A stretch of 10,050 nt of DNA, taken from positions 2,640,707 through 2,650,756 of the forward strand of contig CP070751.1 of assembly GCA_020348445.1 (NCBI GenBank). Direction: 5' to 3'. Below the pieces are notes generated by a model that was given only the letters and a program-made list of their open reading frames with translations, was not told the DNA's origin and searched no databases. The position numbers and the translations under genes are program-made. The DNA comes from Thermoplasmata archaeon. Lineage in GTDB: Archaea > Thermoplasmatota > Thermoplasmata > GCA-020350865. Below, in pieces: positions 3 to 10,050 of the stretch (its first letter is position 1; each line of letters begins with the position of its first letter).

Positions 3-1241
3 CCATTCAATGTCTCGGCTTTAAATCATTCTGTTAAGGGATATGCTGACCCAGAACCAACCATGAATCTATCAAAAGCAGTCTATGTCGAGGTTCCTTT
101 CAACATTATTCCCAATTCACCGCCTTCAGTTTGGGTTTACACTCCTTCTGGGATTCAAAGCGGCAACATAACCATCGATTTTGTGCTTGAGGATTTTGAC
201 CAAGGCGATGACGGAAATATGAGCATCTCTGTGGAGTACAGCACAGATGGCACTTCTTGGGAAGGGGCTATAGCTGGACAGGGAAGTGATCTAGATCATC
301 TATTCAACAATACACTTTATCATTTTGTGTGGGACTCTAAAGCAGATATTGGATCGATATATGACACCACTGTTTACATTAGGATCACCCCTGCTGACAG
401 GGCTGGAAACGGGACAAAGAATCAAACTGGGAGCTTTACTGTGGACAACAAACCCCCTGAGTTGATATCAGGGCCTACTGTGGATGCCACCAACTCAACT
501 GCCACCATCCAATGGACTGTGGATGAGTCTTCAGATGCAAGTGTTTGGTTCGGGCTTGATGGCTCGTTAACAAATTATGCAACTGGTAATTCAGGCTCGA
601 CCTTCCAATCAGTGACACTTACTGATCTAGAACAAGGTCGAAGATATACATATACAGTCAATTCCATTGACCAATATGGCAACCAATATACATCCCCCAT
701 GTATATGTTCGAGACAAAGGTACATATTCAACTTTATAAAGGCTGGAACATGATTTCAATTCCTCCCTATATTACTGATCCAAATCTCGAAATAGTATTG
801 AACTCGATTTCGGGACAATACGATGCTGTGCAATGGTATGATCCTGCGGATGGCAAAGATCCTTGGAAGCACAATCGCCCCGGAAAACCCTTTGGCAATG
901 ATTTAAATATCATTGAGACCAGAATGGGCTTATGGATTCACATGACAGAAGATGCGATTCTGATTCCAGATCAGATCGTCCCAGACCCTGATTACTTTGA
1001 ATTTATCTCTTTGATTGCGGGCTGGAATTTGGTGGGTTATCCTTCTGTGACCACCCGCGATGTGACAACTATTTTAGATCCTGTTCCATACGATAAGGTG
1101 ATGACCTACGATGCAGCCACGGGAGAGTGGCTCAGTTATGATAAAGGAACGGGCTTAGGTGATCTCACAGAAATGGAGCTTGGACAGGGGTATTATATCC
1201 ATGTCACTGTTGATTTCCCGTGGCAGATTACTTATGTGTGA
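3..1241 (+). CDS. 5'-truncated secreted surface protein (gene 1): end of carboxypeptidase-regulatory-like domain, Ig/cadherin-like domain, FN3-like domain and duplicated GWN C-terminal module; paralog of gene 2
   Basis: Frame +3 is open from the window edge (PFNVSALNHSVKGYADPEPT precedes the ATG at 63), and the identical peptide lies inside gene 2 at offset +2651. The ORF-track start at 63 is therefore an internal Met. Stop TGA is at 1239-1241. About 86% aa identity to gene 2 over 412 aa (57 differences by manual count). Confidence 0.93.
   Translation, partial: PFNVSALNHSVKGYADPEPTMNLSKAVYVEVPFNIIPNSPPSVWVYTPSGIQSGNITIDFVLEDFDQGDDGNMSISVEYSTDGTSWEGAIAGQGSDLDHLFNNTLYHFVWDSKADIGSIYDTTVYIRITPADRAGNGTKNQTGSFTVDNKPPELISGPTVDATNSTATIQWTVDESSDASVWFGLDGSLTNYATGNSGSTFQSVTLTDLEQGRRYTYTVNSIDQYGNQYTSPMYMFETKVHIQLYKGWNMISIPPYITDPNLEIVLNSISGQYDAVQWYDPADGKDPWKHNRPGKPFGNDLNIIETRMGLWIHMTEDAILIPDQIVPDPDYFEFISLIAGWNLVGYPSVTTRDVTTILDPVPYDKVMTYDAATGEWLSYDKGTGLGDLTEMELGQGYYIHVTVDFPWQITYV
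723..1238 (+). other. C-terminal bipartite GWN module of gene 1 (two repeats of ~93 and ~79 aa)
   Basis: HIQLYKGWNMISIP...YDAVQWYD...PW...NDL..IE..MGLWIH aligns with FISLIAGWNLVGYP...YDKVMTYD...EW...GDL..ME..QGYYIH. GWN codons are at 741 and 1020. Confidence 0.85.
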
Positions 1242-1294: not shown

Positions 1295-1357
1295 GGAGAA
1301 AACGGATAGGGAATCAGAAGATTCATGGCCAGAAAGGGGAGTTATGGCGATGGCGAT

Positions 1358-1364
1358 GAGGTGA
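1358..1364 (+). promoter_or_regulatory. Archaeal-type Shine-Dalgarno GAGGTGA for gene 2
   Basis: GAGGTGA lies 5 nt upstream of the in-frame ATG at 1370. Confidence 0.7.
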
Positions 1365-1369
1365 GCAAG

Positions 1370-3892
1370 ATGAAGAACAAAAGGCAGTTAGAATCGATTT
1401 TATTGGTTTTTATTTTTGTATCAAGTAGCATTGTAATCGTGGTTCCTTTGACAGCTCCAAAGGCCAGGGGACAGATTGTTCACGATTCAGGCTCCGCCCA
1501 AGCAGAGGATGGGATTTGGCCATTTGATATAGATGGTGACGCTGATGGCATCGTACATTGGAATCCAAATGAGGATCACTGGATAGAGGAAAATTACACT
1601 GTTGAAAGCGGCTATACCCTCGATATACCTGCTATGAATTTCATGGGCAATCCTTCTACTGCCAATGAAATAACTTTTAGGGGCCGGGGGCATAAGATCG
1701 AGGTGTGGGGCACGCTGCTTACCCACACAAATAGCCTCATGCCCCGATTATGGACTGCTTTTTTGGATGGTGATGGCACAGGTTGGGAAGGTATAATATT
1801 CCGTCCCGGTGGTGCGGGAAACATACAAGATTGCCTTTTTTCCGGGGCAAAAAGAGCTGTTAGATATTTCCCGGCACCCCTGCCTGGCCCCGGTGGCTCA
1901 ATAATGCTGGAACCTGGTATATATCGTTCCCATTTTATGGACATAGAGGAGTACGGCGTGGAGGTGTCCGGCGCAGAAGGTTACACGAATGTGGAGCTCT
2001 GTTATTTTGATCAGAGCACGAATCCCAGGGGAAGGGGTTTGCAAGTCATAAGAGGAAATTTGGATATTAAAAACTCGATGTTCATTTCTCACGGCGATGA
2101 CGAGCCTCAACTTTATATATGGGATTCCATTGTCCATGCCGAGGAAGTGACTTTCACTGGCGCAGGTCGATCTGGAAGCCTGGTACGAATCAGAGAGAAA
2201 AGCAATGGGACAGTGCTTACACAATGCAAGTTCCAAACTGGAGCACCAGGCGATCATTATATATGGACCCAAGGATGCACCCCTTTAATAGATAACTGCA
2301 CCTTTGAGACGAAAGATGGTCAGCTTTCAGTAATCGCAGAGGAAAAATATATAGGTCCTTCCCACCCGATACTTCGGAATGCCTCAAGCATGCTCCCGGG
2401 AAATGACGATGCTCCCTTTGATAATTCCACGATCAACGCCACAGGCGCATCCAGCGTAACTCTTCAATGGTACATGCATGTGAATGTGAAAAACCCACTT
2501 GGTCACCCCATAGAGAACGCACCAGTTTGGGTAAAGAATCGCACCGGTGACCCTGCCGAGCCCCCCTCAAAAATAACAGATTCTAAAGGATGGGCATTAT
2601 GGTTTTTGATCACCGAGTTGATCCAATACAATGATAGCAGGGCTATCTTCAATCCATTCAATGTCTCGGCTTTAAATCATTCTGTTAAGGGATATGCTGA
2701 CCCAGAACCGACTATGAATCTATCAAAAGCAGTCTATGTCATGGTTCCCTTCAACGTGATTCCCAATTCACCGCCTTCTGTCTGGGTTTACACACCTTCT
2801 GGGATTCAAAGCGGCAATATCACCCTCGATTTTGTGCTTGAAGATTTTGATAAAGGTGATGACGGAAATATGAGTATCTCTGTGGAATACAGCACAGATG
2901 GTACTTCTTGGGATGAGGCAATAGCCGGACCGGGAAGCGATCTAGAACATCTATTCAACGATACACTTTATCATTTTGTTTGGGACTCTAAAGCAGATCT
3001 TGGATCGATACTTAACACCACAGTTTATATCAGGATCACACCTGCCGACAGGGCCGGAAACGGGACAAAGAATCAGACAGGGAACTTCACTGTGGACAAC
3101 AAACCCCCTGAATTGATATCAGGACCTACTGTGGATGTCACCAACGTAACTGCTACCATCCAATGGACTGTGAACGAATCAGCTGATGCAAGTGTTTGGT
3201 ACGGGCTTGATGGCTCGTTAACAAATTATGCAACTGGTAATTCAGGCTCGACCCTACAATCAGTGGCACTAACAGATCTGCAACCAGGTCGAAGATATAC
3301 GTATACAGTCAATTCCATGGACCAATATGGCAACGAATACACTTCTTCCATTTACATATTCGAGACAAAGGTGCACATTCAGCTTTATAAAGGCTGGAAC
3401 ATGATCTCGGTTCCTCCTTTTATTACTGACCCAAGTCTCGAAAGTGTATTGATATCGATTTCGGGGCAATACGATGCCGTGCAATGGTATGATCCTGCAG
3501 ATGGCAAAGATCCTTGGAAGCACAATCGTCCCGGAAAGCCCTTTGGCAATGATCTGGATATCATCGAGACCAGAATGGGCTTATGGATTCACATGACAGA
3601 AGATGCAACCTTGATTCCAGATCAAATAGTTCCAGACCCTGATTACTCTGAATTTATCTCGTTGGTAAATGGCTGGAATTTGGTAGGTTATCCTTCTGTT
3701 ACCTCCCTAGATGTCGCAGATGCGCTGGATACTGTTCCGTACGATATGGTTCTGACCTATGATGCACCTACGGGGCAGTGGCTCAGATATGATCCCGGTA
3801 CAGGATCTGGTGATCTTTCGCAGATGGAGCTTGGACATGGATATTATATCCACGCTACATTTGATTTCCCCTGGGAAGTAACCTATGTTTGA
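1370..3892 (+). CDS. Secreted surface glycoprotein (gene 2, 840 aa from ATG 1370; ORF-track start 1325 is possible): signal peptide, right-handed parallel beta-helix, carboxypeptidase-regulatory-like domain, Ig/cadherin-like domain, FN3-like domain, duplicated GWN C-terminal module
   Basis: Signal peptide MKNKRQLESILLVFIFVSSSIVIVVPLTAPKARG|Q (1370-1471). Beta-helix-type motifs W.GIIF, DCLF, QCKF and DNCTF (~1550-2470). VNVKNPLGHPIENAPVWV...TDSKGWA (~2472-2750). NSPPSV...SVEYSTDG.SW...FTVDN (~2765-3100). PPELISGPTV..TN.TATIQWT..LTDLQPGRRYTYTVNS.D.YGN (~3101-3373). GWN module 3374-3889. 20 N-x-S/T sequons. Domain names come from motif recognition, not an HMM search. Confidence 0.93.
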   Translation: MKNKRQLESILLVFIFVSSSIVIVVPLTAPKARGQIVHDSGSAQAEDGIWPFDIDGDADGIVHWNPNEDHWIEENYTVESGYTLDIPAMNFMGNPSTANEITFRGRGHKIEVWGTLLTHTNSLMPRLWTAFLDGDGTGWEGIIFRPGGAGNIQDCLFSGAKRAVRYFPAPLPGPGGSIMLEPGIYRSHFMDIEEYGVEVSGAEGYTNVELCYFDQSTNPRGRGLQVIRGNLDIKNSMFISHGDDEPQLYIWDSIVHAEEVTFTGAGRSGSLVRIREKSNGTVLTQCKFQTGAPGDHYIWTQGCTPLIDNCTFETKDGQLSVIAEEKYIGPSHPILRNASSMLPGNDDAPFDNSTINATGASSVTLQWYMHVNVKNPLGHPIENAPVWVKNRTGDPAEPPSKITDSKGWALWFLITELIQYNDSRAIFNPFNVSALNHSVKGYADPEPTMNLSKAVYVMVPFNVIPNSPPSVWVYTPSGIQSGNITLDFVLEDFDKGDDGNMSISVEYSTDGTSWDEAIAGPGSDLEHLFNDTLYHFVWDSKADLGSILNTTVYIRITPADRAGNGTKNQTGNFTVDNKPPELISGPTVDVTNVTATIQWTVNESADASVWYGLDGSLTNYATGNSGSTLQSVALTDLQPGRRYTYTVNSMDQYGNEYTSSIYIFETKVHIQLYKGWNMISVPPFITDPSLESVLISISGQYDAVQWYDPADGKDPWKHNRPGKPFGNDLDIIETRMGLWIHMTEDATLIPDQIVPDPDYSEFISLVNGWNLVGYPSVTSLDVADALDTVPYDMVLTYDAPTGQWLRYDPGTGSGDLSQMELGHGYYIHATFDFPWEVTYV
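3374..3889 (+). other. C-terminal bipartite GWN module of gene 2
   Basis: HIQLYKGWNMISVP... followed by FISLVNGWNLVGYP...GYYIHATFDFPWEVTYV-stop. No hydrophobic tail. Confidence 0.85.
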
Positions 3893-4000: not shown

Positions 4001-6520
4001 ATGATGACTAGATTGAAGACTTTAAAGGATAAAAGGCAGTTGGAATCGATTTTGATCGTGTGTGTGCTTTTGGCAACGAGCATAGTGGTGATTTTTCCAC
4101 TGACCGCGCCCAAGGTTAGTGGTCAAATTATTCATGATATGGGCCAAGCCATGCTAGAAGACGGCCAACCCACTGATGCCGATGGTCAAATTAACCAAAT
4201 CGTTGTATGGGACAATTCTGACACACATATAGTTCAAACACAAAATTATCTTGTTAATCCCGGGTATACACTGGTTATACACGGATTAACTCCTCCAAAT
4301 GGTATATCTTTTGATTTGGGAGCAACCAGGATAGATGTGGCAGTTGACGCCAAATTGATCACCCATGATAATGGTGCTGACTTCACAAGAACTGTATTTT
4401 CTTCCTCAGGAATTGGAGGCTGGGACGGCATATATTTCCTGCCAGGCAGTGAAGGTAGAATATTGGATTGCGAGTTCGATGGTCCCAACAATGGTGTGAT
4501 TTTCCAAGGAGCATCCCTTATGGAACCTGGTATATCCAAATCCAGTTTTATAAATATGGCCGCATTTGGTATACAAATGGATAGAGCAGTGAATTATACG
4601 AACATGGATTTCGTCGTATTCGATGACAGCGCCGCACCAAGCGCGGTTTGTCTGGATGTTCGCAATGGCACTTTGAATTTGACCGACGGTGTAAGCTTCA
4701 TAGGCCACGGCATTGGTATGCCCAGTATGTATGTTTCCAATGCGAACGTAACCCTCGATAGCGTTAACTTCAATGGTTTTGATATTCCAGGTCAGGGTCT
4801 TTTGGTGGAGGAAAAGTCCAATGGGACAGTGCTTGATTTCTGCGAGTTTCAAGGTGGTTGGCCTGGTGAATATTATGCAAAAACCAACGGGGCATCCATT
4901 TTTATGGATAACTGCTCATTTTACCAGGGAGGAGCCTCCGCCGGCGCTCTAACATTGCAGGCAAATGATTATTCCCCAGGTTTTCCATCCCATGATCTTC
5001 TAAGGAATCCCATGGGTATAGGCAGCGACTGGGACAATGCAACACTAGGTGTCACTGGAGCCTCTAGCATCACTGTGGAGTGGTGGCTGGATGTGGAGGT
5101 GGTGGATCCTGATGGTCACCATATAATAAGCTCAACTGTCAATGTCTCAGACCCCTCTTCCCCTGACAAACGGCTTTCTGATGCATTGGGCTTTGCAAGA
5201 TGGTTTTTGGTCACTGAGTTTATTCAATACAGCGGTTTGCGGTCATACTTCGATCCATTCAATATCTCTGCCACCAACGTTTCGTCTATCGGGTATCTGG
5301 AACCACCGGCCAGTGTAGAAAAGTCAAAGATCGTAACAGTTGTCGTTCCATTCAGTATTATACCAAACACGTTACCTAAGGTCACATGGTTGCCCACACC
5401 CCCAGGTGTACAATCTGGCAATATCACCATCGAATATATACTCGAAGATCTAGACCCATGGGACGACGGAACCCTAAATGTAACAGTATCCTACAGCTTT
5501 GATTCCTTGATCTGGCATTATGCAACTGCTATGCCCAGTAGCCCCCCGACTGTTAATCTGAACAATAACACGCTCTATTACTTCTATTGGGACTCCTCAT
5601 GGGATTTGTTTGAAATGCAAGTTCCAGTAATATATATTCAGGTCCGTCCTTATGATGCCGCGGGCCGAGCCGGAGGCCAATCTGGGCTTACATTGGAAAC
5701 CGGGGCTTTCGAGGTGGACAACCAGGCACCAAGCCTCGTTGGTCAAGATCCTACTGCCACGCCTACAAACACCACCGCACTTGTCACATGGTTCGTGAGT
5801 GAAGATGCCGATGCAGCGGTATGGTACGGGCTCGATGGTGTTCCTACAATGGAGCAGACAGGCGCTGTACAAACCCCAGATCAAAGTGTGGATCTAACAG
5901 GCTTGATTCCAGGCAGGAATTACACATTTTATGCCAATTCCACAGACGCAATGGGTAACAAAGCTTCCTTTGGACCGTTTTGGTTCCACACAGAGGTTCA
6001 TATCCAATTATATAAAGGCTGGAACATGATATCGATTCCGCCTGACATTCCCGACCCAGATATTGCAGACGTTCTGCTCCCGATAGCAGGCGACTATGAT
6101 GCCGTTCAGAGGTACGATCCATCGGACGCCACAGATCCTTGGAAGCACTACAATCCAAATAAACCCTCACAATACAACGATTTGAACCAGTTGGCCTTGA
6201 ATATGGGCCTTTGGATACACATGACAACCGAGAGAGTTTTCATAGTAAACCATGAAGTTCCAACTCCTTCAGGTGCATATCCCATTGGAATGTTTGTGGG
6301 CTGGAACCTCGTTCCATATCCATCATCCATTGCAAGGGATGTTCCCACAGCATTATCAGGCGGCTTCTCATGGGATATGGTCATGTATTTCGACGGAGCT
6401 TCTGGTCAATGGTTAAGATATGACGGGGTAACATATTTCGACATCACCCAAATGGAGATCGGTCATGCCTATTATGTCCATGTCACATCAGGTGGATTTT
6501 GGAACGTAAATTATACGTGA
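4001..6520 (+). CDS. Secreted surface glycoprotein (gene 3, 839 aa): more diverged paralog of gene 2 with the same architecture (signal peptide, beta-helix, Ig/FN3-like stalk, GWN module)
   Basis: Signal peptide ...KDKRQLESILIVCVLLATSIVVIFPLTAPKVSG|Q (4001-4123) is homologous to gene 2. Shared motifs: W.GI.F.PG..G.I.DC.F, MEPGI, EKSNGTVL..C.FQ.G.PG, DNC.F, QSGNITI, EDxDxxDDG, F.VDN.PP, VWYGLDG and VHIQLYKGWNMIS. About 17 N-x-S/T sequons. Confidence 0.93.
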   Translation: MMTRLKTLKDKRQLESILIVCVLLATSIVVIFPLTAPKVSGQIIHDMGQAMLEDGQPTDADGQINQIVVWDNSDTHIVQTQNYLVNPGYTLVIHGLTPPNGISFDLGATRIDVAVDAKLITHDNGADFTRTVFSSSGIGGWDGIYFLPGSEGRILDCEFDGPNNGVIFQGASLMEPGISKSSFINMAAFGIQMDRAVNYTNMDFVVFDDSAAPSAVCLDVRNGTLNLTDGVSFIGHGIGMPSMYVSNANVTLDSVNFNGFDIPGQGLLVEEKSNGTVLDFCEFQGGWPGEYYAKTNGASIFMDNCSFYQGGASAGALTLQANDYSPGFPSHDLLRNPMGIGSDWDNATLGVTGASSITVEWWLDVEVVDPDGHHIISSTVNVSDPSSPDKRLSDALGFARWFLVTEFIQYSGLRSYFDPFNISATNVSSIGYLEPPASVEKSKIVTVVVPFSIIPNTLPKVTWLPTPPGVQSGNITIEYILEDLDPWDDGTLNVTVSYSFDSLIWHYATAMPSSPPTVNLNNNTLYYFYWDSSWDLFEMQVPVIYIQVRPYDAAGRAGGQSGLTLETGAFEVDNQAPSLVGQDPTATPTNTTALVTWFVSEDADAAVWYGLDGVPTMEQTGAVQTPDQSVDLTGLIPGRNYTFYANSTDAMGNKASFGPFWFHTEVHIQLYKGWNMISIPPDIPDPDIADVLLPIAGDYDAVQRYDPSDATDPWKHYNPNKPSQYNDLNQLALNMGLWIHMTTERVFIVNHEVPTPSGAYPIGMFVGWNLVPYPSSIARDVPTALSGGFSWDMVMYFDGASGQWLRYDGVTYFDITQMEIGHAYYVHVTSGGFWNVNYT
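5999..6517 (+). other. C-terminal bipartite GWN module of gene 3
   Basis: HIQLYKGWNMISIPP...YDAVQRYD..D..DPWKHY.P.KP...NDL.....MGLWIHMT, then IGMFVGWNLVPYPS...WDMVMYFD..SGQWLRYD...DITQMEIGHAYYVH...-stop. Confidence 0.85.
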
Positions 6521-6523
6521 TAT

Positions 6524-6600
6524 TGACCATAATTATTTATAGTCATATTCCCATGCCAATTGGCAGGTCTGGCTGTTTCCTCATAGGCTGAGGTAAGCCA
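6524..6600. promoter_or_regulatory. Cluster of dyad-symmetry elements downstream of gene 3 (operator, terminator or RNA structure candidates)
   Basis: TGACCATAA-ttat-TTATAGTCA (6524-6545, 8/9 pairs), perfect palindrome TGCCAATTGGCA (6554-6565), and an interrupted hairpin TGGCT..CCTCA-taggc-TGAGG..AGCCA (6570-6600). Confidence 0.4.
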
Positions 6601-6719
6601 AGGCAAAACTCTAAATACCTTAAAGAGTATACGGTTTATGTGCACTAATATAATGAACATACGAATTAAAACCTAAAAACCGAAAAAAATGTCCGATGCA
6701 TGGGATGGCAATAAGGGGA

Positions 6720-6735
6720 GAAAAAGAATTATATC
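6720..6735 (+). promoter_or_regulatory. Possible BRE/TATA promoter of gene 4
   Basis: Purine-rich GAAAAAG followed by AATTATAT, about 40 nt upstream of ATG 6777. It is a weaker match than the gene 3 promoter. Confidence 0.3.
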
Positions 6736-6764
6736 CTTGTTTCGGGCAGAGAATTTGATGAAAT

Positions 6765-6769
6765 GGAGG
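6765..6769 (+). promoter_or_regulatory. Shine-Dalgarno GGAGG for gene 4
   Basis: GGAGG lies 7 nt upstream of ATG 6777. An in-frame TGA at 6759-6761 excludes earlier starts. Confidence 0.7.
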
Positions 6770-6776
6770 ACTGAAG

Positions 6777-9700
6777 ATGTCTAAGAGAGGAGAGTTTAAG
6801 AAAAGAAGATTTTTTTCTTTTACCTCGTGTGTGTTGCTTACCCTAAGCACCCTGCTTATCGGGATATCGTTTGAAGTGCCCAATGTGAGTGCAAATGAGA
6901 ACCATGATGTGGGAGAGATTAATTTTGATATGCTCACAGGTTATGGCAGACTTTTAATGCCTCTTAAATGGCCTAATCCTGGTTCCTTCCAAACCGTAAG
7001 TCACCAAGGAACTGGTTTTATTGGATTGGTTGTGGATCAGGACGGCTACAATCATACCCCTGGGTCTGTGGATATCGCGGATTGCTTTAAAGAGGCAGAT
7101 ACCAAGTACTGGACCCAAGATGATTTTGGAGCATCGTCAATTACTATGGCCATCGATTCCGGTGGTGTCCAAAAAAGCATCGCAACTATGAAGAATCTTT
7201 ATACCACACAGGATGCCAACGATATACAAATCGATCAAACAGTCTGGACAGTTGAAAACAAGGACTGGGCAATATTTCAATGGAATGTTCAGAATATTAA
7301 GAGCCCTGCAGCTGATATTACAGGCTTCAAGCTCGCTTTGGAGGTGGATATCTCGCAAACTGATTGGGGGGCGTCGACAACAGATGCTGGTCTAGGCGGG
7401 GACTCAGGAGACGACGTCGACGGTTTCGATGCCGGTGAGAACGTGTACTGGGCTCAGGATGACGCAGGTTCTGGAGTCGCCATGGGATTTGGCTCAGTCA
7501 TTGCCTCGGACCCCATCACACATTACTTTTCAAAGGATTATAAACCCGCAACCTATATTGAATACAAGGAATATTGGGAAGACGAGCAATGGTTGTACGA
7601 CAGAATCAGCGCAGCAAACAGTGTTGAGGGAGACATCACAGCAGGAAATCGAACATCCCAGGTTGGATGGACTGGAGAAACCATAGCTGCAGGATCCTCA
7701 AGGACCTTCACCCTCGTGATCGCCATAAATAATACGAAAAACAGCATGATCAATGCAATAAAGGATGCTCAATACTACTATAGAAACGTGATAACAGGCT
7801 TTGTGTTTACAGAATTTTCGGATTCAGGGGGAACCCACCAAATCGAGATATTTAACAACGGCCGTGAATCAACTCCCGCATCAAATTTTGAATTTTCATT
7901 GGACGGTGGAGTATCGTTTTTGACGGTGTCCCCGGACAAGGACCCGATACCCACATACGAGTATGCGGTTTTCGATGTCACTGGTGGCGGATCCATCGGC
8001 GATCAGGGTGATACAATTAGTGTGTACGAAAATGGAATGTTAATTGACCAGGTTGCTTTTGGACAGGAAGGGCTTGCACCCGATCCTTTACCCGGAGAAT
8101 CGGTGGCAAGGTATTATAATCCTAATACGGCCTCATATTCTAACCAATGGGTTCACCAGGCCTCAGGGGGGCATACATTTGGTGCTCAAAACGATGTGGG
8201 TGTTGTCATGCCCAGAACCAGGATTGTTATCAACAGGGTCATGTTCGATCCCAGCGTGCCAGACGAGGGATACATCGAGCTGATGTACACCGGACCCATA
8301 GGACTGTCTACGAACATTACAGGATACAGGATCCTTTGCAATGACGAGTATGTCATACCCGCGGGACCTGACACCACTTTGGACTACTACAATAACAAAT
8401 TTTATGTGTTCACATATTCTGATATGAATCCATTTTTCACAAGCATGGACCCATCTGCAGACAATGTATATCTTTGCCTGGGTAACAGGAGCATTTTGGA
8501 CAGGGTTGGATGGAGCGGTTCCCACACCACAGGATTTTTCATGTCCAGGATCCCTGATGGAAATGGAACTAATTTGGGTTACAACGATGCCACTTCCATT
8601 GCTGCTAGCTGGTTTTTCGATCAGCAGCCAGTCGTAATGCTCACAGAGTTGTATGTGGACAGCACAAGCGCCCGAATCGAGGTCTTCAACCCAAGAGGCG
8701 GCGAAAAGTTGCTTGATTCCAGATGGAGCCTGGAAAGCAGTATAAATGGCCCCGGGGCACTTCCAGGATTATGGAATTTGGGTAAGATACCCCGTGATGG
8801 AGGATATGATGACTTCACCATGAACCCGGGTCCCGTACTTGGAGGAGAAGGTGATACGATCACTTTATATTGGGATCCAAGCTCCGGCCCAATTTTAATG
8901 GATCAAGTTGGCTTCGGAACACACGGACCTGCACCAGATCCCCTCTCGGGGGAATCCACTGCCCGCTACTACAATGACACCCAAATGATCTACTACGATA
9001 ATTGGACCAGGGAAGATACTCCCTCTTTCGGAGCTCAAAATGATGTCATAGCTATAAACCAAAGCTCTTGGATCATCTTAAATGAGGTCATGTTCTATCC
9101 GGGTACTATCCCAACTGGAAGGTTCTTTGTTCTAATCAATATAATGCCAGGGTGGAATGTGAATGTCGCAGGTTACACGATAGTATGCGATGCACCATAT
9201 CTATTTCCATCGTTTCCCATAACCCCTGGAGGATTTGATGGATGGATTTACGCACCTGACGATCCAGATGGCCGGCCGAATATGGTGATCATCAAGTACA
9301 CGGATGATCCCACAAACTCCACTAATTTCTTCGATAGTATTGATGAAACAGGAGACAATATTTACCTTTACGATTTCAACGGGGAGCTTGCCGACATGGT
9401 TGGATGGAATAATCCGCATACCCAGGGAATGACCGTGCGCAGGGTTCCAACTGGAAACGGCACTTATCAGGGCCATAACGACATCACTTCTGAGGCCGCA
9501 AGCTGGGTTTTCGATACTCCATTGGCAGTTCAAGTAACAGAAATATCTGACGACCAATCAACATCTGAAATCGAGATATATAACCCCAGGTATTCGCTGA
9601 TCAACTTCAGTTCTGGAAACTATGATTTTGAGAATTCCACAGGCGCTGCGCTCACAGGCACGTGGACAAAACCAGAGGCGGGAGCAGGTGAGTACGCTGT

Positions 9701-10050
9701 TTTCGATGTAACTTCCCCAGGTTTAGACCCAGATAGTGATATCATACGCTTCTATCAGAGCGGAGTCTTAATCGAGGAAATAGGCTATGGAACAAAAGGA
9801 CCAGTTCCTGATCCTTTGGCGGGCGAGAGCGTTCAAAGATATTGGAATGGCGTGTATTATACCAATTTATGGGGAAGGAACTGGACAACAGGAATCAATT
9901 TCGGGCTTCAAAATGACATACCCCCCGCAAATCTCTCTTCATTCTTTATGCTGAACGAGGTGCTCTTTAATCCCAGCAATCAAGATGATACTTATGTGGA
10001 GGTTTTCAATGCCTATGGAATCGCATGGGATATCTCTGGATATAAGATCG
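6777..10050 (+). CDS. 3'-truncated large secreted protein (gene 4, at least 1091 aa) with an N-terminal ~300-aa domain and tandem lamin-tail-domain (LTD)-like repeats; missing from the ORF track
   Basis: Manual translation of frame +3 from ATG 6777 shows no stop to the window end (MSKRGEFKKRRFFSFTSCVLLTLSTLLIGISFEVPNVSA|NENHDVGEINF ... FMLNEVLFNPSNQDDTYVEVFNAYGIAWDISGYKI). The signal peptide is 6777-6893. LTD-like motifs include (I/L)NEV.F.P..YVE.FN...DISGY.I, GD.I.LY...IDQV.(F/Y)G, GES..R and FG.QND. Many N-x-S/T sequons. Confidence 0.92.
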   Translation, partial: MSKRGEFKKRRFFSFTSCVLLTLSTLLIGISFEVPNVSANENHDVGEINFDMLTGYGRLLMPLKWPNPGSFQTVSHQGTGFIGLVVDQDGYNHTPGSVDIADCFKEADTKYWTQDDFGASSITMAIDSGGVQKSIATMKNLYTTQDANDIQIDQTVWTVENKDWAIFQWNVQNIKSPAADITGFKLALEVDISQTDWGASTTDAGLGGDSGDDVDGFDAGENVYWAQDDAGSGVAMGFGSVIASDPITHYFSKDYKPATYIEYKEYWEDEQWLYDRISAANSVEGDITAGNRTSQVGWTGETIAAGSSRTFTLVIAINNTKNSMINAIKDAQYYYRNVITGFVFTEFSDSGGTHQIEIFNNGRESTPASNFEFSLDGGVSFLTVSPDKDPIPTYEYAVFDVTGGGSIGDQGDTISVYENGMLIDQVAFGQEGLAPDPLPGESVARYYNPNTASYSNQWVHQASGGHTFGAQNDVGVVMPRTRIVINRVMFDPSVPDEGYIELMYTGPIGLSTNITGYRILCNDEYVIPAGPDTTLDYYNNKFYVFTYSDMNPFFTSMDPSADNVYLCLGNRSILDRVGWSGSHTTGFFMSRIPDGNGTNLGYNDATSIAASWFFDQQPVVMLTELYVDSTSARIEVFNPRGGEKLLDSRWSLESSINGPGALPGLWNLGKIPRDGGYDDFTMNPGPVLGGEGDTITLYWDPSSGPILMDQVGFGTHGPAPDPLSGESTARYYNDTQMIYYDNWTREDTPSFGAQNDVIAINQSSWIILNEVMFYPGTIPTGRFFVLINIMPGWNVNVAGYTIVCDAPYLFPSFPITPGGFDGWIYAPDDPDGRPNMVIIKYTDDPTNSTNFFDSIDETGDNIYLYDFNGELADMVGWNNPHTQGMTVRRVPTGNGTYQGHNDITSEAASWVFDTPLAVQVTEISDDQSTSEIEIYNPRYSLINFSSGNYDFENSTGAALTGTWTKPEAGAGEYAVFDVTSPGLDPDSDIIRFYQSGVLIEEIGYGTKGPVPDPLAGESVQRYWNGVYYTNLWGRNWTTGINFGLQNDIPPANLSSFFMLNEVLFNPSNQDDTYVEVFNAYGIAWDISGYKI
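7800..10050 (+). repeat. Protein-level (A-B)n repeat array of LTD-like domains in gene 4
   Basis: A1 ~7800-8198, B1 ~8223-8618, A2 ~8631-9047, B2 ~9072-9512, A3 ~9528-9920, B3 from ~9945 (truncated). The PDPLxGESxxRY motif starts at 8079, 8934 and 9807 (periods of 285 and 291 aa). Confidence 0.88.

Follow-up and report, generated by a model that had tools for sequence, protein, structure and literature searches.

An Open Frame of 1091 Codons at the Contig Edge

The window analyzed here, a stretch of 10,050 nt from a Thermoplasmata archaeon (assembly GCA_020348445.1, contig CP070751.1, positions 2,640,707–2,650,756 of the forward strand), ends within a large gene for a predicted secreted protein. 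On the forward strand, frame +3 starts at ATG 6777 and runs for 1091 codons, the last complete one ending at 10049, without a stop and open at its 3′ end. This is the largest open reading frame (ORF) in the window (the runners-up encode 855 and 839 aa); the remaining five frames carry 40, 72, 27, 49, and 64 stops over 6777–10049, and the probability of 1091 stop-free codons at this base composition is ∼10^−27.5. A GGAGG sequence at 6765–6769 lies 7 nt ahead of the ATG, and the long frame is 45%–58% identical along its whole length to 57 other proteins. Because the frame is conserved over its entire length in these proteins, the small ORFs within it (6620–6937, 8163–8525, 8621–8863, and 9201–9557 on the reverse strand and 7429–7686 on the forward strand) are its shadows. 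The features of the gene are as follows.

6637–6665, forward strand: 29-nt element in which the inverted repeat TATGT...ACATA flanks a TATA-like core (from conservation)
6765–6769, forward strand: Shine-Dalgarno-like GGAGG, 7 nt before the ATG (read from the sequence)
6777–10049, forward strand: partial coding sequence, codons 1–1091, of a surface protein of the lamin tail domain (LTD) family, 3′ end cut (from ORF, translation, and conservation)
6777–6893, forward strand: predicted signal peptide, residues 1–39, with a KKRR n-region, a hydrophobic core, VSA, and a putative cut before N40 (from hydropathy)
6900–7784, forward strand: N-terminal domain, residues 42–336, a beta-supersandwich (from hidden Markov models [HMMs], an AlphaFold2 [AF2] model, and Foldseek)
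7791–8597, forward strand: unit 1, S domain (residues 339–460) and LTD (467–607) (HMM parse)
8616–9491, forward strand: unit 2, S domain (residues 614–746) and LTD (749–905) (HMM parse)
9507–10049, forward strand: unit 3, S domain (residues 911–1035) and the first 51 residues of LTD3 (1041–1091), cut by the contig end (HMM parse)

The first-pass annotation of this DNA had proposed the 1091-codon frame from ATG 6777 to the edge, the Shine-Dalgarno site, a signal peptide, and the shadow status of the small listed ORFs. Computational translation, the position of the GGAGG, and the conservation of the main frame across the 57 other proteins bear out the first, second, and fourth of these, and a K/R-rich N terminus followed by a hydrophobic stretch agrees with the predicted signal peptide. 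The same annotation held that the largest coding sequence was missing from the ORF track; it is indeed the largest ORF, but it was not overlooked, since it runs off the contig end.

The nature of that end became clear from the assembly itself. The nominally one-contig genome, a metagenome-assembled genome (MAG), consists of 354 contigs joined by 353 spacers, each of exactly 100 N, and the window is one complete 10,050-bp contig flanked by two of these spacers. As the window is a whole contig and the DNA beyond the spacer is unlinked to it, the gene cannot be extended within this genome; a “1145 aa” ORF obtained here is an artifact of reading through the N spacer into an unlinked contig. The practical lesson is that the genome is a concatenation, and that translation across its N spacers yields false gene ends. 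The gene is contained in both public runs, X1 and X2. Independent X2 contigs span 6500–10050, each with 0–2 differing letters, and one of them (covering 9256–10050) reaches 239 nt beyond the window edge, showing that the sample contains a continuation of the locus. When JGI metagenome contigs were scanned for exact matches to the last 34 bases of the window, there were 0. We conclude that the frame is a genuine gene, namely the 5′ part (1091 codons) of a longer coding sequence cut by the contig end.

A Beta-Supersandwich Head on a Stalk of Lamin Tail Domains

The encoded protein was parsed into domains with HMMs built in this analysis. Its N terminus reads MSKRGEFKKRR, followed by a hydrophobic core and an A-x-A-like “VSA” at residues 37–39. 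The most hydrophobic 17-residue segment is residues 18–34 (mean hydropathy 2.05), and the rest of the 1091 aa holds no comparable stretch resembling a transmembrane (TM) helix; a “...LLIGIS...PN.SA” pattern is kept among the N termini of relatives. The N terminus thus looks like a Sec-type signal, with cleavage predicted after VSA39. The N-terminal domain, modeled by AF2 at high confidence (pLDDT 92.7, pTM 0.91), is matched by Foldseek to the N-terminal beta-supersandwich of GH94 phosphorylase and GH116 enzymes (123 chains at E ≤ 0.001; 8ho7_A, E = 6.4e-7, TMq 0.57; 3qde_A, TMq 0.61). It is 42%–68% identical to the corresponding domain of 44 relatives and has 16 invariant columns, including an acidic loop, GLGGDSGDDxDGFD, that probably binds Ca2+.

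In the 1091 window residues, Pfam finds only the lamin tail domain (PF00932; 63.3 bits against a cut-off of 34.3, the best stretch being residues 764–878 in unit 2) and no VWA domain. The S domain that precedes each LTD aligns to the LTD profile (hhalign probability 95.4%, E = 1.9e-8), so that S is a divergent LTD and the body a row of six immunoglobulin (Ig)-like sandwiches.

A search of 5.8 billion proteins retrieved 58 proteins at E ≤ 1e-3, query included, among 7,999 scored candidates. The best non-self match is a paralogue from the same MAG (P0003, 58% identity), the following matches are at 46%–50%, and the MAG holds more than a dozen paralogues. Eleven homologues carry NCBI names, either “lamin tail domain-containing protein” or “VWA domain-containing protein,” and come from Thermoplasmata/Methanomassiliicoccales MAGs, and the nearest clusters in the ESM Atlas are unnamed “hypothetical protein” entries whose taxon labels rest on 1–5 members. 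The literature search for “Thermoplasmata” with “lamin tail” found nothing, and in the portions available to us the papers on “lamin tail domain” and “archaea” did not treat the present family. The window protein belongs to the LTD family by its Pfam score, which lies above the gathering cut-off, and, with its N-terminal domain (residues 42–336) and three S-LTD units co-linear with those of its relatives, to an unnamed Thermoplasmata family of N-domain-(S-LTD)n proteins. The gene adds a member to a family of LTD surface proteins that is annotated but unstudied. Its minimal members (P0052–P0054, 608 aa) have the N-terminal domain joined straight to a C-terminal fn3 + GWN-GWN module, described below, with no LTD unit, so head and tail can work without a stalk. 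Taken alone, the gene is one more large LTD surface protein of an uncultured sediment archaeon; its value lies in its context.

One Body, Three Alternative Endings

To see how such proteins end, we classified the C termini of 71 family sequences (58 database proteins and 13 further paralogues from the MAG). A GWN-type ending is present in 13 of them and a B-type ending in 38 (37 by motif, and k255_47554 by HMM), while three (P0015, P0058, and P0059, out of the 54 complete relatives) finish with a hydrophobic helix and a charged tail; the remaining 17, including the query, are cut or end otherwise. The GWN-tailed form continues for ∼282 residues past the last LTD, as fn3 + GWN + GWN, and the B-tailed form for ∼860 residues, as a spacer, a VWA domain (some with PKD), and fn3-B-fn3-B.

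On a tree of the N-terminal domain (55 rows), counting well-supported branches alone still gives at least 5 (GWN) to 9 (B) changes of tail type, and the smallest clade that holds the query (SH-aLRT 87) contains two GWN-tailed proteins and one B-tailed protein. Because the tail classes are intermixed on the tree, the tails appear to be swapped cassettes and the head is no predictor of the tail; prediction of the missing tail from N-domain phylogeny was dropped for this reason. One adhesin body thus occurs with any of three endings, namely a GWN pair, a B pair, or a TM helix, which have been exchanged many times. This repeated exchange provides good evidence for the uncatalogued tails as portable modules of addressing or retention.

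The Probable 3′ End of the Gene

The gene probably ends in a B-type tail, as judged from comparison with its relatives, and the evidence for such a tail is in our judgment stronger than that for a GWN tail. The best 15 matches of unit 3 are all the last unit of their proteins (15/15), so LTD3 is very probably the final LTD. The layout of the window, a GWN-tailed gene followed by the LTD gene, recurs in another genome of the genus at G003:C229, where the LTD gene (49%–53% identity) is itself cut at the end of S3. The missing part is supplied by contig G003:C200, which carries a 994-aa ORF, open at its 5′ end, that starts at the beginning of LTD3, is 60% identical there to the last 43 residues of the window protein, continues into a VWA domain, and finishes with B-B; a second LTD gene lies behind it. 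An intact 2020-aa counterpart in G002 (G002:C93) is likewise B-type and followed by a second LTD gene, and the complete three-unit genes of that genome are all three B-type (2024, 2030, and 2031 aa, stop to stop).

In the MAG itself, a six-frame scan found one orphan LTD-type B tail and no orphan LTD-type GWN tail. The orphan is a 609-aa ORF, open at its 5′ end (G000:C1:1602542–1604368, minus strand), on the contig that we call k64; it comprises half a VWA domain followed by fn3-B-fn3-B, and its best matches are P0014 and the G003:C200 tail (56% each). Behind it on k64 lies the N-terminal part of a second LTD gene, the remainder of which is contig k73: k64 (L048, G000:C1:1600501–1604369) and k73 (L049, 1634654–1638110) hold the halves of one LTD-VWA gene of ∼1,740 aa, 60%–67% identical to P0017–P0019, with ∼40 residues missing between them. 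As the second gene of k64 is completed in this way, the window gene is the one LTD-family 5′ part in the MAG that still lacks a tail. Contig k73 had been considered as a continuation of the window gene and was ruled out, since both halves match P0017–P0019 at 60%–67% and k73 is the remainder of the second gene of k64. The lengths also fit: 1091 + 336–342 + 609 residues give ∼2,036–2,042 aa. The VWA domain of the orthologues has the metal ion-dependent adhesion site (MIDAS) motif DSSGS...TDA, of which ITDA is retained in the orphan k64 tail. That this tail is the actual 3′ end of the window gene is, on this comparison, slightly better than an even proposition. An equal 354-nt spacing in k64 and G002:C93 was noted as well, but DNA alignment did not support it as a sign of orthology.

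Three of the four assemblies of the genus (G000, G001 at L044, and G003 at L045) are interrupted within the third S-LTD unit of this gene or of a look-alike, and only G002 has intact three-unit genes. The third S-LTD unit is a repeat-driven weak spot for assembly.

Several observations weigh against both the B-type tail and the link to k64. The closest relative of the window protein, P0003 (58%), is GWN-tailed, as are the best matches of the individual segments (S1, P0003, 65%; S2, P0003, 67%; S3, P0005, 62%), and P0003 also carries the 29-nt upstream element (23/29). The proposed orthologues are only 47%–53% identical and could be paralogues, and with repeated tail swapping even orthologues need not share a tail. 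The spacer between the two genes of k64 is not conserved with that of G003:C200, and k-mer comparison of the window end, k64, and k73 against all other contig ends shows no overlap of 21 to 127 nt. Finally, the MAG is 82% complete, so that the orphan tail may have a partner that escaped binning, and the C terminus of the window gene is absent from the assembly.

The strongest competitor is accordingly a gene in which LTD3 is followed by one fn3 and a literal GWN-GWN pair, for a total of ∼1,460 aa, with the 3′ end unassembled. Three-unit proteins with this tail exist (P0004, 1469 aa; P0006, 1423 aa; P0033), this is how the closest paralogue (P0003) and the top match for every segment end, two of the three tailed proteins in the N-domain clade of the query do so, and so do the three upstream neighbors in the window. 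We nevertheless consider a GWN-GWN tail on this gene unlikely, because the counterparts by synteny in both G003 and G002 have B-type ends and because the only orphan LTD-type tail in the MAG is a B tail. A TM helix or any other ending is less likely still.

Upstream of the gene, the 29-nt element at 6637–6665 lies within 165 nt of intergenic DNA that share 73% identity with G003:C229, and it recurs with 93% identity (27/29) at a similar distance upstream of the three-unit gene in G002:C93. Both likenesses count toward the B-type ending. At up to 6 mismatches, it is found in the MAG only before this gene and P0003 (23/29), while a reversed control gives 0 matches. We take it as a candidate promoter or operator for this sub-clade. 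Several metagenome contigs matched the window solely at the 6637–6665 spot.

GWN and B Tails in the MAG and Its Class

The three genes upstream of the LTD gene end in GWN-GWN tails located at the following positions.

732–1208, forward strand: GWN-GWN tail of the 5′-cut gene 3–1241 (HMM)
3383–3859, forward strand: GWN-GWN tail of the neighbor gene 1325–3892 (HMM; AF2 pLDDT 90.9)
6008–6487, forward strand: GWN-GWN tail of the neighbor gene 4001–6520 (HMM)

The 5′-cut ORF (1–1241) is a near-copy of the C-terminal half of gene 1325–3892, with tails that are 82% identical, and the first 55 nt of the window recur at 2652; tandem near-duplicates of this kind are the probable cause of the break at the left edge of the window.

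A six-frame scan of the MAG identified 145 ORFs with any of the units modeled here. There are 126 complete ORFs that end within 15 residues of a tandem pair, 91 (83 + 8) of them in GWN-GWN and 35 in B-B. By a crude rule applied to Met starts only, 94 of 117 tail ORFs checked begin with a K/R-plus-hydrophobic N terminus, and a second TM-like stretch is absent from all 117. Beyond the MAG, a GWN-pair profile matches 14,595 representative clusters in a public library at E ≤ 1e-3 (1,091 at E ≤ 1e-30), and the pair is at the protein C terminus in 149 of the best 150 of these 14,595 matches; the sole internal pair among the best 150 is at residues 959–1127 of P0164 (1538 aa). Within the class, the GWN pair is present in 65 of 121 sampled genomes, and in some families in none of those searched (0/12, 0/10, and 0/9). 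Strong full-length B-B tails are found in the genus of the window and a few other families; the B-B profile matches 31 of the 121 genomes at E ≤ 0.001, the weak matches being to fn3 only. In another genome of the class, GWN pairs end open frames of 8,661 and 8,676 aa (G024:C11:82955–83461 and 108868–109374).

Neither tail has a model in Pfam or NCBIfam or a sequence relative in the PDB. The two GWN repeats align with each other (hhalign probability 96.9%), as do the two B repeats (98.5%), and the GWN modules of LTD proteins align with those of the window neighbors at 99.9%. The B module lacks the GWN motif. A first comparison of GWN with B (99.9%) was withdrawn because GWN-type modules and fn3 strands had been mixed into the B alignment; in a clean comparison, the best alignment reaches 90.8% (E = 1.2e-6) and the others 0.3%–55%, so that a remote relationship of the B module to the GWN module is probable, though unproven, at the profile level.

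The first-pass annotation had also predicted a GWN ending on this unrelated protein, on the condition that the GWN module is a general sorting tag. The notion of a shared, portable C-terminal tag stands in general (126 ORFs ending in a tandem tail, a second TM-like stretch in 0 of 117, and at least 5 tail switches), whereas a literal LxxGWN ending on this gene probably does not, given the VWA + fn3-B-fn3-B ends of its syntenic counterparts.

How the tails act is a separate matter from which of them the gene carries. Rather than a retention domain, the tandem tail could be a secretion or sorting signal that is recognized and removed by a dedicated machinery, as is the C-terminal domain (CTD) of type IX secretion (T9SS), or a dockerin-like plug for a scaffold. 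T9SS CTDs and dockerins share with the present tails an extreme C-terminal position, many copies per genome, and attachment to unrelated bodies. We regard these roles as doubtful, since N-terminal Sec-type signals are present on the tail proteins anyway, the analysis brought up neither a partner nor a processing enzyme, and the two GWN tails searched have no match to Por_Secre_tail or dockerin in Pfam at E ≤ 1. At the same threshold, these families and the Listeria GW domain gave no match when five whole relatives were searched along with the two GWN tails, and a literature search on sorting signals yielded only short C-terminal signals that are already known.

Anchoring of the window protein by a C-terminal TM helix or a PGF-CTERM-like signal, possibly as a membrane-fixed scaffold, is very unlikely. 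A hydrophobic helix plus charged tail does close P0015, P0058, and P0059, the first of these ranks among the better hits for units 1 and 3, and the genome encodes an archaeosortase A homologue (G000:C1:4780632–4781375; 146.7 bits against a cut-off of 75). However, such an ending occurs in just 3 of 54 complete relatives, B-B tails are found on the syntenic counterparts, and the PGF_CTERM model has no match at E ≤ 0.001 in the 82%-complete genome. Least probable is a dead or chimeric gene created by misassembly of the repeated LTD units: the contig does break in a repeat-rich gene, as do 3 of the 4 genus assemblies in the third S-LTD unit, but 1091 codons run without a stop or frameshift in an architecture co-linear with intact relatives, and the independent X2 contigs over 6500–10050 differ by 0–2 letters each.

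Discussion

We favor, with some reserve, the interpretation that the window holds the 5′ part of a gene whose product is a secreted, adhesin-like protein of the cell surface, ∼2,040 aa long and with a B-type tail, and that k64 carries its probable 3′ end. The third unit would then be the last, and the gene would run for ∼950 further codons through the rest of LTD3, a MIDAS-containing VWA domain, and fn3-B-fn3-B, with the orphan 609-aa k64 fragment as its 3′ end and ∼1 kb unassembled between the two contigs. The protein would be exported by the Sec pathway, after which the signal peptide would be cleaved behind VSA39; the anchor-less C-terminal tandem tail may hold it non-covalently on the cell envelope, while a stalk of six LTDs presents the VWA domain and the distal supersandwich head outward, where the two could bind particles, polymers, or other cells in the sediment. 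Surface retention, adhesion, and signal cleavage are functions that we propose from the sequence.

A broader and more tentative idea is that most of the exoproteome of this archaeon and of many other Thermoplasmata may be displayed via two interchangeable, anchor-less tandem cassettes (GWN-GWN and fn3-B-fn3-B) that dock on different envelope partners or layers, and that LTD adhesins, the present one included, might switch between them by recombination and thereby retarget the body. If true, the arrangement would amount to an archaeal system of surface display, undescribed so far, that has an addressing code built in. The tails provide a concrete and testable handle on how proteins are retained on the surface of the cell-wall-less or poorly known Thermoplasmata.

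Parts of the protein resemble known systems. The head shares its fold (galactose-mutarotase-like) with the N-terminal domains of GH94 cellobiose/chitobiose phosphorylases, which are of the carbohydrate-binding type, and of GH116 enzymes, but with 7%–13% identity, no catalytic domain, and TM scores of ∼0.5–0.6, the likeness is at the level of fold only. Like other extracellular prokaryotic LTD (PF00932) proteins, the predicted product is secreted and multi-domain, with a Pfam LTD above cut-off and 57 other homologues; the present subfamily differs from them in its 300-aa supersandwich head, its alternating pairs of divergent and canonical LTDs, and its tail, one of two uncatalogued tandem types; for none of these do Pfam and NCBIfam have a model. 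With the MIDAS-dependent VWA adhesins, the orthologues and the probable 3′ part share a VWA domain (DSSGS...TDA) on an Ig-like stalk, although in the present protein the VWA domain is predicted to lie outside the window and anchoring would be by a tail domain rather than by a TM helix or sortase motif. The T9SS CTD of Bacteroidota (Por_Secre_tail, PF18962) offers an analogy to the tails, being a beta-rich module of ∼80–100 aa at the extreme C terminus of many unrelated exported proteins of one genome; the present tail differs in having no sequence match to it, in being a tandem pair, and in its archaeal host. A further parallel is provided by the GW modules of Listeria (InlB and Ami) and other non-covalent wall-binding repeats, which are likewise tandem, anchor-less C-terminal repeats with a conserved Gly-Trp and a proposed non-covalent hold on the cell surface.

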